Shown: positions 3,834-8,748, counted from the stretch's first letter. The stretch: DNA of 64,000 bases from an uncultured Rikenellaceae bacterium (GCA_964435015.1 CAYSXP010000022.1:1734-65733); one strand, 5' to 3'. Translations and numbers: made by a program. Notes: generated from the letters alone by a model not told the origin.

Positions 3834-4670
3834 ATGAATGAACTGAACCTGAAGGACAAGACAGCGGTCATCACCGGCGGCGCGGGGGTTATCTGCTCGG
3901 AGATGGCCAGGGCCCTTGCATTGCAGGGAGTGAGGACGGCAATAGTGGATCTGAACAAGGAAGCTGCCCGGAAAGTCGCCGGTGAAATTGAAAAGGAATC
4001 CGGGACACCTTCCATCGGACTGGCAGCAAACGTTCTTGACAAATCATCCCTCAATGCCGCCAGGGAAGAGCTGATCAGCCGTTTCGGCCCTGCCGGCATA
4101 CTGGTAAACGGCGCTGGAGGAAATGCAGCTTCCGCAACCACTAAGGTCGAAATGATCGAAGGAAACGAGGAGCTTTCCGATACTTTCTTCGGCCTCGGGA
4201 CAGAAGGATTTGACCTGGTGTTCGATCTCAATTTCAAGGGTACGCTGCTTCCGACAATGGTCTTTGCTGCCGACATGATAAAAAGGAGATCAGGTACGAT
4301 CATCAACATCTCATCGATGAATTCCTACCGGCCCCTTACCAGGATAGCGGCATATTCGGCAGCAAAAGCTGCTGTTAACAATTTCACGCAATGGCTCTCA
4401 GTTCATTTTGCAAAAACCGGGGTGAGGGTCAATGCAATTGCACCCGGATTCCTGCTGACAAACCAGAACCGTTTTCTCCTGATCAATGAGAAAACCGGAG
4501 AGCTGACCGCAAGGGCAAGAAAAATTATCGGCAATACTCCGATGGACCGGTTTGGCACACCCGGGGAGCTTACCGGCACCGTGCTGTATCTGGCTTCCGA
4601 TCTGTCGAAGTTTGTGACCGGCATCGTGATACCGGTCGACGGCGGATTCAGCGCCTACAGCGGAGTGTGA
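3834..4670 (+). CDS. uxuB: SDR-family oxidoreductase, Bacteroidota-type D-mannonate (fructuronate) oxidoreductase
   Basis: 278 aa with the SDR motif TGGAGVICSEMA and a YSAAK catalytic motif. Its length and position after uxaC match the short-chain UxuB of Bacteroidota. Substrate assignment is by context. Confidence 0.65.
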   Translation: MNELNLKDKTAVITGGAGVICSEMARALALQGVRTAIVDLNKEAARKVAGEIEKESGTPSIGLAANVLDKSSLNAAREELISRFGPAGILVNGAGGNAASATTKVEMIEGNEELSDTFFGLGTEGFDLVFDLNFKGTLLPTMVFAADMIKRRSGTIINISSMNSYRPLTRIAAYSAAKAAVNNFTQWLSVHFAKTGVRVNAIAPGFLLTNQNRFLLINEKTGELTARARKIIGNTPMDRFGTPGELTGTVLYLASDLSKFVTGIVIPVDGGFSAYSGV

Positions 4671-4676
4671 GAAAGA

Positions 4677-4740
4677 GTGAGAGTGAGAGTGAGAGTGAGA
4701 GTGAGAGTGAGAGCGAGAGCGAATGAGTGTGAGTGTGAGG
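4677..4740. repeat. hexanucleotide microsatellite (GTGAGA)n, 6 perfect copies then degenerate copies (GCGAGA, GCGAAT, GAGTGT)
   Basis: Counted directly: perfect GTGAGA units at 4677, 4683, 4689, 4695, 4701 and 4707, then diverged units up to about 4740. Confidence 0.95.
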
Positions 4741-4752
4741 GAAAGGAAAGGC

Positions 4753-6210: not shown

Positions 6211-7229
6211 TAAACTGGGGAATAATCGGATGCGGCAACGTGACTGAAGTTAAAAGCGGTCCGGCATTCAATAAGGTAAGGAATTCGGGGCTCCTGGCAG
6301 TAATGCGGCGGGATGCGGCCCTTGCGGAGGATTATGCAAAACGGCACAATGTACCCAGGTTCTACAGCAATGCCGATGATCTCATTAACGACAATGACGT
6401 GGATGCAGTATACATAGCAACTCCCCCGGCGAGTCATGCCCGGTACGCCGTCAGGGCTCTTCAGGCGGGCAAGCCGGTATACATTGAAAAGCCCATGGCG
6501 GCAAATTACCAGGAGTGCATCATGATAAACGAGGCAGCGGAGAAATACGGCCTGCCGGTTTTTGTTGCATATTACCGCAGGACACTTCCCGGGTTCCTGA
6601 AAATCAGGGAGCTCATCGGAGGCGGGCACATCGGTAAGGTAAGGTTTGTCCAGATTCAGATATTTAAGTATCTTTCCGCGGATGAAAAGGCGGGAAGATT
6701 ACCGTGGCGCGTGATTCCTGAGATTTCAGGCGCGGGTCATTTCTTTGATCTCGCTTCCCATCAGCTTGACTATCTCGATTTCCTGTTTGGCCCTGTTCAG
6801 AAGACCGCAGCCATTGCAGTGAACCAGGCGAATCTGTACAGCGCCGAAGATATGGTCTCAGCCAGCTTTGTGTTTCCCGGAAACATCATTGCTTCAGGAA
6901 CATGGAGTTTTTCTGCAGCCATGGAAAGCAAGAGGGATTCACTTGAAATATTCGGGGAAAGGGGAATGATAAAAACATCGACCTTTTCGTTCGAACCGAT
7001 AGTTGTGGTGAATGATAAGGGCAGGCAGGAGTATGAAAATGAAAGGCCCGAGAATGTTCAGTATTATCTTATCGAACAGATTGTTAAATCATTAACAGAA
7101 GGCGGACCGGTTGTCAGCACGGGAACTACCGCTGCAAGGACGAGCAGGGTGATGGACGAAGTTGTGCGGGAATATTATATGAAAGCGGATGACGGGTTAC
7201 CCGGCCGGCCGGCTGCCAACGGGGAATAA
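6207..7229 (+). CDS. Gfo/Idh/MocA-family NAD(P)-dependent oxidoreductase
   Basis: 340 aa. Has an N-terminal WGIIGCGNV Rossmann motif and a typical EKPMA motif. Its start overlaps the upstream stop as ATGA at 6207-6210. Confidence 0.85.
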   Translation: MINWGIIGCGNVTEVKSGPAFNKVRNSGLLAVMRRDAALAEDYAKRHNVPRFYSNADDLINDNDVDAVYIATPPASHARYAVRALQAGKPVYIEKPMAANYQECIMINEAAEKYGLPVFVAYYRRTLPGFLKIRELIGGGHIGKVRFVQIQIFKYLSADEKAGRLPWRVIPEISGAGHFFDLASHQLDYLDFLFGPVQKTAAIAVNQANLYSAEDMVSASFVFPGNIIASGTWSFSAAMESKRDSLEIFGERGMIKTSTFSFEPIVVVNDKGRQEYENERPENVQYYLIEQIVKSLTEGGPVVSTGTTAARTSRVMDEVVREYYMKADDGLPGRPAANGE

Positions 7230-7293
7230 GAAGCAGGTGAAGCGATAAAACTGAATTTCAACAAATAACAAACCATAAGTAAAAATAATTATC

Positions 7294-8748
7294 ATGGATG
7301 AATTGTCCGACATAGGATTAATAGGGCTGGCAGTTATGGGAGAAAACCTTGTGCTGAACATGGAAAGCAAAGGTTTCCGTGTAACTGTCTACAACAGAAC
7401 AGTACAGAAAGTCAATGACTTTATTGCCGGAAGGGCCAAAGGAAAGAATATCCGCGGCGCAATGACCCTGGAAGAGCTGACCGCTTCGCTGAAGAGGCCA
7501 CGGAAGGTAATGATAATGGTCAAGGCAGGCAAAGCCGTTGATGAAATGATAGATGCTCTCCTGCCCTTTCTGGAAAAAGGTGATATTATCATTGACGGCG
7601 GAAATACACATTTCCCTGACACCAACAGGCGCACGGCCTATGTTGAGGGCAAGGGGCTTCTGTACATCGGTACAGGTGTTTCGGGAGGCGAGGAAGGCGC
7701 TTTGCTGGGGCCTTCCATTATGCCCGGAGGGTCGCCGGCCGCATGGCCGGCGGTAAAGCCGGTCTTCCAGGCCATAGCGGCAAAGGTTGAAGACGGGTCG
7801 CCCTGCTGCGACTGGGTCGGCGAGAACGGTGCCGGTCATTTTGTCAAGATGGTTCATAACGGAATTGAGTACGGCGACATGCAGCTAATCTGCGAAGCGT
7901 ATCAGATCATGAGGGACATGCTTCACCTGAGTGCAGATGAGATGCATTCCATTTTCAGGGAATGGAACGAGGGTGAGCTCAACAGTTACCTGATCGAGAT
8001 CACCCGGGATATTCTTGCATACAAGGATGAAGACGGAGAGCCCCTGGTTGACAAGATCCTCGATACGGCGGGGCAGAAGGGAACGGGAAAATGGACCGGT
8101 GTGGCGGCCCTCGACCTGGGGATACCTCTCACACTGATAGGCGAAGCAGTTTTTTCCAGGTGTCTGTCTGCAATAAAGGAAGAGCGGGTTGTGGCTTCAA
8201 CCCTGCTATCCGGCCCGCGTCCGGGCTTTTCCGGCAACGTGGCAGGTTTCATTGAAAATCTTCGCGAAGCATTGTATGCCTCGAAAATAGTGTCGTACGC
8301 ACAGGGATATTCACTCATGAAGGCAGCGGCAGAAGAATACGGCTGGAAGCTGAATTACGGGGGTATTGCCCTGATGTGGAGGGGCGGCTGTATTATCCGC
8401 TCGGTTTTCCTGGGCAAGATCAGGGAAGCTTATGATAATGATCCGGGAATAACCAACCTGCTCCTTGACCCGTTCTTCAGGGATAAGATCGACAGGGCAC
8501 AGAATGGGTGGAGAACCGTTGTTGCTACTGCGGCTGAAAGCGGGATCCCTGTTCCGGCCATCGCTTCGGCTCTCTGTTACTTTGACGGATACAGGTGTGA
8601 AAGACTGCCTGCAAACCTGCTCCAGGCCCAGCGCGATTATTTCGGCGCACATACATATGAAAGGATCGACAGGCCCCGGGGCGAATTCTTTCACACAAAC
8701 TGGACCGGACGCGGAGGAACCACCGCTTCAACAACATACAATGTGTAA
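7294..8748 (+). CDS. gnd: 6-phosphogluconate dehydrogenase, decarboxylating
   Basis: 484 aa. Has IGLIGLAVMGENLVLN, the GAGHFVKMVHNGIEYGDMQLI signature and a C-terminal QRDYFGAHTYER motif. Confidence 0.93.
   Translation: MDELSDIGLIGLAVMGENLVLNMESKGFRVTVYNRTVQKVNDFIAGRAKGKNIRGAMTLEELTASLKRPRKVMIMVKAGKAVDEMIDALLPFLEKGDIIIDGGNTHFPDTNRRTAYVEGKGLLYIGTGVSGGEEGALLGPSIMPGGSPAAWPAVKPVFQAIAAKVEDGSPCCDWVGENGAGHFVKMVHNGIEYGDMQLICEAYQIMRDMLHLSADEMHSIFREWNEGELNSYLIEITRDILAYKDEDGEPLVDKILDTAGQKGTGKWTGVAALDLGIPLTLIGEAVFSRCLSAIKEERVVASTLLSGPRPGFSGNVAGFIENLREALYASKIVSYAQGYSLMKAAAEEYGWKLNYGGIALMWRGGCIIRSVFLGKIREAYDNDPGITNLLLDPFFRDKIDRAQNGWRTVVATAAESGIPVPAIASALCYFDGYRCERLPANLLQAQRDYFGAHTYERIDRPRGEFFHTNWTGRGGTTASTTYNV

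Follow-up and report, generated by a model that had tools for sequence, protein, structure and literature searches.

A putative nickel-dependent hexonate 2-epimerase of LarAH group 18 in a hexuronate operon of an uncultured Rikenellaceae bacterium: a predicted route from mannonate through gluconate to the pentose phosphate pathway

Introduction

Hexuronates from pectin and other uronic-acid polysaccharides are a major carbon source in sediments, digesters and guts, and the textbook Ashwell route dehydrates mannonate to 2-dehydro-3-deoxygluconate (KDG). For T. maritima, Rodionova 2012 (cited in PMC7583248 and PMC6978723) put forward a different course, from mannonate to gluconate and on into the pentose phosphate pathway (PPP), with the epimerase acting before the kinase. 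The reverse order was measured in L. suebicus, whose cell extracts phosphorylate mannonate first and then epimerise 6-phosphomannonate (Valk 2020; PMC6978723). Here we examine a window of 64,000 nt, meaning the whole stretch of DNA that was analysed, from an uncultured Rikenellaceae bacterium (GCA_964435015.1, CAYSXP010000022.1:1734-65733), whose genome is 98 % complete and comprises 3.7 Mb in 52 contigs. The feature of interest, at positions 3,834-8,748 of the window, contains the gene for a 423-aa homologue of the lactate racemase LarA, placed among genes of hexuronate catabolism together with gnd.

The homologues of LarA (LarAH) were divided into groups by Desguin et al. (2020; PMC7583248). 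Mannonate and gluconate are interconverted by groups 19 and 20, and GntE2 epimerises free mannonate (PMC7583248). Group 18, labelled G2E3 and predicted to be a hexonate epimerase, has the substrate-signature residues of these two groups, the signature shared by groups 18-20 being E-V/S after the catalytic His and a Trp in helix 11 (PMC7583248). The genomic context given for group 18 in the supplement of that paper includes a short-chain dehydrogenase/reductase (SDR), 6-phosphogluconate dehydrogenase, a ribokinase-family kinase, glucuronate isomerase and KduI; the NCBIfam model NF052594 corresponds to this group. Outside groups 19 and 20, gluconate 2-epimerase activity is known only for LarAH15 and, weakly, for LarAH10.

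An earlier note on this DNA had read the feature as a possible mannonate-to-gluconate shunt into the PPP. Our sequence comparisons support that interpretation, which is not new: the route is that of Rodionova 2012 and the function is that predicted for group 18 by Desguin 2020. What we add is the co-distribution of gnd with group 18 genes and their joint decay, an apparent genus-wide lack of canonical UxuA, fusions of GntK with group 18 proteins, and a kinase candidate in a clade of PfkB proteins that we call clade A.

Results

The LarA homologue belongs to LarAH group 18

The product of the gene at 4939-6210 (+ strand) scored 635 bits with NF052594 ('nickel-dependent putative hexonate epimerase', cutoff 500), versus at most 41 bits with the models for malate and lactate racemases, 41 bits being the score of the next-best LarA-family model. 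It contains a Lar_N domain (PF09861, 36.3 bits, cutoff 23.3), and no second match to this domain was found in the genome, making it the sole LarA homologue there. In a PDB sequence search the best solved relative was T. maritima GntE2 (4NAR; E 2e-37, full length), with lactate racemase next (E 1e-5). An AlphaFold (AF2) model, obtained from a 37-sequence alignment (pLDDT 95.5, pTM 0.91), again returned 4NAR as the top Foldseek match (TM 0.81, 25 % identity), and lactate and malate racemases were at TM 0.54-0.71, LarA structures lying at 0.68-0.71. Our placement draws on the NCBIfam equivalog and on searches by sequence (PDB) and by fold, which group the protein with gluconate 2-epimerases and not with the racemases of lactate or malate. 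The family exceeds 8,000 clusters at 90 % identity; the group 18 proteins are 61-70 % identical across phyla and around 25 % identical to GntE2.

The earlier note had also pointed to a segment that looked alignable to the Lys/His nickel-pincer cofactor site of lactate racemase. Alignment with 4NAR and with lactate racemase 2YJG bore this out: the segment PHEVAGMANYNK...H falls on the catalytic His, on the Lys that tethers the cofactor (+10) and on the His that binds Ni (+16). The cofactor and catalytic residues listed for LarA by Desguin et al. (D72, R75, H108, H174, K184, H200 and K298; PMC7583248) have as equivalents D41, R44, H74, H151, K161, H177 and K281, and the spacings from H151 to K161 (+10) and from K161 to H177 (+16) are the same as in LarA and GntE2. 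The Lys that tethers the nickel-pincer nucleotide (NPN), K161 (K184 in LarA), and the Ni-binding H177 (H200 in LarA) are kept in 137 of 139 relatives; for H74, H151, D41, R44 and K281 the figures range from 134 to 138. The substrate signature of groups 18-20 is present as H151-E152-V153 plus W277 in helix 11, and these positions are kept in 128-138 of the same 139 proteins.

The genes needed to make the cofactor, for which the note had asked, are all in the genome: larC, larE and larB are contiguous (C1:195160-197875), each above its curated cutoff. An extra full-length larE (297 bits) lies apart from this cluster, at C19:36405-37175. As judged from its sequence, the 423-aa protein, hereafter LarAH18, is an NPN-dependent C2 epimerase of LarAH group 18.

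Gene order and predicted route

Our open reading frame (ORF) map and family searches agree with the earlier note on the gene order, all on the + strand: uxaC, SDR, LarAH18, Gfo/Idh/MocA oxidoreductase, gnd, a transporter of the major facilitator superfamily (MFS) and a UxaE-like gene. The operon starts with the gene for glucuronate/galacturonate isomerase, UxaC (2303-3700; PF02614, 656 bits; NF002794, 598 bits), which is followed by that for an SDR-type fructuronate reductase, a UxuB-like D-mannonate oxidoreductase (3834-4670; NF006132, 389 bits, cutoff 281). The LarAH18 gene shares an ATGA overlap with the next gene, which encodes an NAD(P)-dependent Gfo/Idh/MocA sugar oxidoreductase (6207-7229; PF01408, PF22725 and PF02894), implying translational coupling. 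Next come the genes for the decarboxylating 6-phosphogluconate dehydrogenase, Gnd (7294-8748; TIGR00873, 775 bits), which is the only copy in the genome, for an MFS transporter of the anionic-sugar (ExuT/DgoT-like) type (8774-10072; PF07690, MFS_1, 198 bits; TIGR00893, 237 bits, below cutoff), and for a UxaE-like tagaturonate/fructuronate epimerase (10122-11375; PF16257, 187 bits, cutoff 27.1, the profile being covered in part). UxaC, the UxaE-like protein, the SDR fructuronate reductase and Gnd are therefore encoded with the epimerase on one strand within 2303-11375, as in the shunt of T. maritima type.

The best explanation of the locus as a whole, with a probability of roughly 0.55, is that LarAH18 diverts mannonate via gluconate into 6-phosphogluconate and the PPP. 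UxaC would yield fructuronate, a branch that galacturonate would join because of the UxaE-like epimerase, and the SDR would reduce fructuronate to D-mannonate. LarAH18 would then turn this into D-gluconate by inverting C2, a hydride being passed transiently to the nickel cofactor; C6 would be phosphorylated by a KdgK-like PfkB kinase whose gene lies beside pgi on contig C4; and Gnd would convert the resulting 6-phosphogluconate to ribulose-5-phosphate, CO2 and NADPH. Unsaturated uronates would be taken by KduI and KduD with KdgK and Eda. Genomic context, gluconokinase fusions and the co-distribution with gnd make D-mannonate/D-gluconate interconversion the most likely reaction of LarAH18.

None of uxuA, kdgK and eda lies inside the 64-kb window, as the earlier note had remarked; in the rest of the genome, kdgK (C40:23261-24298) and eda are adjacent on contig C40. 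UxuA, UxaA and Edd were not found genome-wide, so saturated hexuronates probably leave mainly through the LarAH18 shunt in this organism. A full-strength UxuA was likewise found in 0 of 24 other sampled genomes of the genus, of which 22 carry LarAH18.

Co-distribution of LarAH18 and gnd

We searched 40 relatives in addition to the genome of the window, and 16 of these, from other families of the order, come close to independent observations. Kin are not independent, and the figures that follow are counts, not statistics. All six sister families with LarAH18 have gnd and none of the ten without LarAH18 does, and LarC was found in five of the six and in one further genome. LarAH18 and gnd also occur together without zwf, in G031 (99 % complete) and in G011 and G021 (96-97 %). 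In a genome of the same genus, G018, the LarAH18 gene and the adjacent gnd (C2:525453-529092) are both pseudogenes with many stop codons, in what looks like joint decay; a further gnd, of another type (585 bits, versus 750-805), is intact beside zwf (C2:322315-325181).

Conservation of the neighbourhood

The neighbourhood recurs across phyla, which the earlier note had proposed as a check. We compared 80 loci from named genomes of Bacteroidota, Ignavibacteriota, Verrucomicrobiota, Acidobacteriota, Planctomycetota, Spirochaetota and others, with LarAH18 proteins 61-89 % identical to that of the window. Gene maps reveal a recurrent core of SDR, a kinase-type gene, LarAH18, optionally Gfo and pdxB, and Gnd, and the arrangement SDR-(kinase)-LarAH18-Gnd is found in at least seven phyla. 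Counting over loci with enough flanking sequence (59 downstream, 63 upstream), a same-strand Gnd lies no more than 4.5 kb downstream of LarAH18 in 47/59, an SDR precedes LarAH18 within 3.5 kb in 43/63, and a PfkB kinase lies upstream in 31/63. The MFS and UxaE-like genes recur in related loci. In Verrucomicrobiota, LarAH18 frequently lacks Gnd and the SDR as neighbours, and in six loci of this phylum (L042, L048, L066, L072, L079 and L096) a gene for a 421-aa protein without a Pfam or NCBIfam match stands beside PfkB and LarAH18.

Many families have pdxB (4-phosphoerythronate dehydrogenase) between LarAH18 and gnd (L030, L040, L046, L059, L060, L067, L068, L071, L084, L089 and others; genomes G025, G028, G029, G034 and G036); in the genus of the window pdxB is located elsewhere (C1:19911-21044). 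The pdxB embedded in the cluster is a single-copy housekeeping gene.

Candidates for the kinase step

In the published scheme the phosphorylation step is the sole gap, and the comparative data offer candidates for it and for two orphan activities. The earlier note had placed a gluconate kinase outside the window, and indeed none is encoded within it; its implied identity did not hold, since canonical P-loop GntK was found neither in the genome nor in the 40 relatives, and the likely kinase is a KdgK-like PfkB.

A tree of PfkB proteins from the 80 loci has three clades, two of them encoded directly before LarAH18 and the third being the Eda-adjacent KdgK clade; several loci hold a kdgK-eda pair plus a second, LarAH18-adjacent PfkB. 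The two PfkB genes of the genome fall apart in this tree: that on C40 is KdgK, and the other, C4:120834-121913, situated 44 nt downstream of pgi, belongs to one of the LarAH18-adjacent clades (clade A). The solved structures nearest to it are those of KDG kinases, which act on a sugar acid. Of the sister families, five of the six with LarAH18 have clade A and none of the ten that lack LarAH18 does. The kinase is thus probably a KdgK-like PfkB of clade A encoded on another contig.

Within the genus, clade A is lacking from four genomes of at least 81 % completeness, and every one of them has a PFK-family gene plus a HAD gene between the SDR and LarAH18; in all 11 genomes compared that have clade A elsewhere, the SDR is followed directly by LarAH18, as in the window. 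At this site neither PFK nor HAD is present in a fifth genome lacking clade A, which is 75 % complete. The PFK-family product resembles PPi-dependent phosphofructokinase (NF010675, 369 bits). HAD also accompanies PfkB in some loci, so PFK looks like an alternative to PfkB and HAD like an accessory; the PFK-like product may be an enzyme of phosphofructokinase fold acting on a sugar acid. For the HAD-like partner no relative was found in the PDB, and its ESM atlas match says only 'HAD family hydrolase'. The pair of a PFK-like gene and a 301-aa HAD directly before LarAH18 was seen in L108-L111 (G007, G010, G023 and G020), L025-L027, L032, L041, L049, L061, L081, L086 and L091; inside the genus it is confined to genomes without the clade-A kinase.

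A domain of GntK/IdnK-type gluconokinase is fused to LarAH18 in four independent cluster representatives (P0123, P0128, P0142 and P0153), one of them labelled Pirellulaceae (Planctomycetota) by its source. The Walker A motif and all LarA residues are intact in the four proteins. In the three that were scanned, the kinase domains scored 124-180 bits, over the GntK/IdnK cutoff of 113.75, and the LarAH18 domains 563-576 bits in two and 477 in the third (NF052594 cutoff 500).

Six FGGY kinases are also encoded in the genome (GlpK, FucK, AraB, two XylB-like and one without assignment). As gluconate kinases they were rejected, none of the six reaching the gntK cutoff; the unassigned XylB-like protein (C18:65897-67402) is a weaker alternative candidate.

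Spacer, expression and flanking genes

Intergenic gaps in the operon measure -4 to 154 nt, except for the 268-nt spacer between the SDR and LarAH18 genes (4671-4938), in which direct reading of the sequence shows two tandem-repeat arrays, (GAGAGT)n followed by G-rich GGGTTKC heptamers. Many congeners have other lineage-specific repeats of 4-8 nt here (GCTCAGR, TGGTTGC, GGGCRCA and GAAT runs; spacers compared in L019, L020 and L112-L126). Because four congeners carry the PFK-like and HAD genes at this place, the repeats mark a site of gene gain or loss.

A scan of 2000-12800 for sigma-70 promoters and terminators gave counts close to the shuffled expectation. Contigs from the RNA libraries of two studies match the operon over most of its length with at least 99 % identity, one of them running across the LarAH18/Gfo junction; they are a weak hint of expression, as they show neither level nor strand, DNA carry-over is possible and uncovered bins are uninformative.

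Divergent from the operon and upstream of uxaC are kduI (5-dehydro-4-deoxy-D-glucuronate isomerase; 1250-2086, - strand; NF002091, 422 bits, cutoff 250) and, adjoining it, a gene for a KduD-type SDR of the 2-dehydro-3-deoxygluconate 5-dehydrogenase/gluconate 5-dehydrogenase family (370-1167, - strand; NF005488, 422 bits, cutoff 369). The KduD-type SDR is part of the unsaturated-uronate branch toward KDG, and the pair also stands beside the cluster in related loci. After the UxaE-like gene there is a xylose-isomerase-like TIM-barrel gene (AP_endonuc_2; 11530-12477), present at the same site in a few of the closest relatives (L019, L115, L120 and L126) and probably outside the core of the cluster.

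Discussion

The proposed route and the points that weigh against it

If the predicted route operates, a nickel epimerase and Gnd appear to carry the uronate flux in this organism, no canonical UxuA-type mannonate dehydratase having been found here or in most of the genus. Growth on uronates would then depend on nickel, and the balance of redox and CO2 in uronate fermentation would shift, because the NADH used by the reductase would be offset by the NADPH from Gnd.

Several points weigh against this reading. The function of group 18 is predicted from sequence for every one of its members, and the kinase gene is outside the operon in the genome of the window. A non-UxuA dehydratase exit is possible: a ManD-like enolase (C9:58980-60344) that is under both curated cutoffs (391 versus 550 and 384 versus 430 bits) could dehydrate mannonate. 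The distribution of gnd has a competing correlate, zwf, which four of the six sister families with LarAH18 possess and none of the ten others, so the gnd signal could partly reflect the oxidative PPP in general. Adjacency alone is no proof of a role in the pathway, because housekeeping pdxB sits in the same operon in other families. The translationally coupled Gfo has no place in the proposed scheme. Finally, the kinase acts first in the L. suebicus extracts (PMC6978723).

The genome has five enolases resembling acid-sugar dehydratases, none above a curated cutoff: the ManD-like one and those at C40:12509-13837, C40:17980-19452, C7:42741-44240 and C18:57569-58978. Several have an N-terminal extension of 50-90 residues, and two are near kdgK-eda on C40.

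Order of epimerase and kinase

The alternative that fares best keeps the partners and reverses two steps: a PfkB or PFK-like kinase would make 6-phospho-D-mannonate, and LarAH18, as a 6-phosphomannonate 2-epimerase, would turn this into 6-phosphogluconate for Gnd. We consider this a real but minority possibility. It is the order measured in L. suebicus extracts, for which neither that study (PMC6978723) nor the later literature that we found names the genes of the kinase and the epimerase. The tight conservation of LarAH18 across phyla and its distance from GntE2 would suit a different, more constrained substrate; the kinase gene is mostly upstream of LarAH18; a HAD gene, of phosphatase type, lies directly before it in 11/63 loci, which hints at phosphorylated intermediates; and the clade appears to have no canonical gluconokinase, judging from the genome of the window and the 40 relatives. 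The characterised relatives GntE1, GntE2 and LarAH15, however, act on free acids, and group 18 has their substrate signature; the kinase domains of the three fusions scanned exceed the curated GntK/IdnK threshold; and the L. suebicus epimerase may or may not be homologous to LarA. On balance we favour a free acid over a phosphorylated substrate for LarAH18 by roughly two to one.

A joint form of the reversed order is equally tentative: LarAH18 would be the orphan 6-phosphomannonate 2-epimerase, the LarAH18-linked PfkB clade would be the mannonate kinase of Valk et al., and the PFK-family protein would substitute for it in some genomes. If true, this would give genes to two orphan activities and make the route widespread in anaerobic Bacteroidota, Ignavibacteriota, Verrucomicrobiota and Planctomycetota.

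Other substrates, and the Gfo partner

An unlikely alternative is that LarAH18 acts on another aldonate or sugar acid (e.g. L-gulonate/L-idonate, D-altronate/D-allonate, or a 2-hydroxy uronate or aldarate), with Gfo handling the product and Gnd merely co-regulated. This would give a task to the Gfo protein, whose gene overlaps that of LarAH18 and which is otherwise roleless in the mannonate scheme, and Desguin 2020 name just 'a hexonate' for group 18 and suspect that mannonate is not the true substrate of GntE1 (PMC7583248). One LarAH18 protein of 823 aa, P0147, carries a C-terminal domain of the N-acylglucosamine 2-epimerase (AGE) superfamily of sugar 2-epimerases/isomerases, which would also fit another substrate. 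Yet Gfo is optional, being found immediately after LarAH18 in 9/59 diverse loci and in most congeners, and it is the SDR mannonate oxidoreductase and Gnd that stay constant as partners; the fusions with gluconokinase speak for a hexonate of gluco or manno configuration, and gnd is lost and decays together with LarAH18. No NCBIfam model matched the Gfo protein above its cutoff, and its best PDB relatives, at 84-86 bits, are uncharacterised or 1,5-anhydrofructose reductase, which indicates the generic family only. Its possible roles include those of a second, NADPH-using fructuronate reductase, a 2-ketogluconate reductase, or an aldose 1-dehydrogenase feeding gluconate.

That there is no metabolic link at all, a housekeeping gnd of the oxidative PPP having come to lie by chance in the operon of a LarA homologue with an unrelated function, is very improbable: this gnd is the sole copy in the genome, zwf is present too (contig C3) and pdxB shows that housekeeping genes enter the cluster, but the gnd-LarAH18 linkage spans at least seven phyla, the co-distribution is perfect in the 16 sister families, the pair persists without zwf in G031, G011 and G021, and in G018 both genes decayed while the zwf-linked gnd survived.

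Comparison with known systems

The mannonate-to-gluconate route predicted for the window can be set beside four described systems. LarAH18 and L. plantarum LarA (5HUQ) have in common the superfamily fold (TM about 0.70), the Lys that tethers the cofactor, the His that binds Ni, both catalytic His residues and the requirement for LarB, LarC and LarE; LarAH18 differs in its low identity (about 17 %), in having E-V and not F-F after the catalytic His, and in its sugar-acid rather than lactate context. The pathway of L. suebicus has the same entry (UxaC, UxaE and fructuronate reductase) and the same exit (6-phosphogluconate, Gnd and ribulose-5-phosphate) and is likewise redox-neutral; the order of kinase and epimerase is reversed there.

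The hexuronate locus of T. maritima comprises UxaE, an SDR fructuronate reductase, GntE, GntK and Gnd (Rodionova 2012). T. maritima has GntK next to gntE, as well as UxuA, whereas in the genome of the window neither was found and the candidate is a KdgK-like PfkB. The two epimerases are about 25 % identical and belong to separate phylogenetic groups. GntE2 (LarAH20, 4NAR) matches LarAH18 in fold (TM 0.81) and in the residues for catalysis and NPN binding, and the two pathways agree in their logic and in the partners UxaC, UxaE, SDR and Gnd. Closest of all is LarAH group 18 itself, for example ACP_2683 of Acidobacterium capsulatum: the cluster in the window differs from it in being without a kinase gene and in the inserted Gfo/Idh/MocA gene, and agrees with it in the tabulated context and in the whole set of signature residues (D, R, H, H-E-V, K, H and W..N-K).

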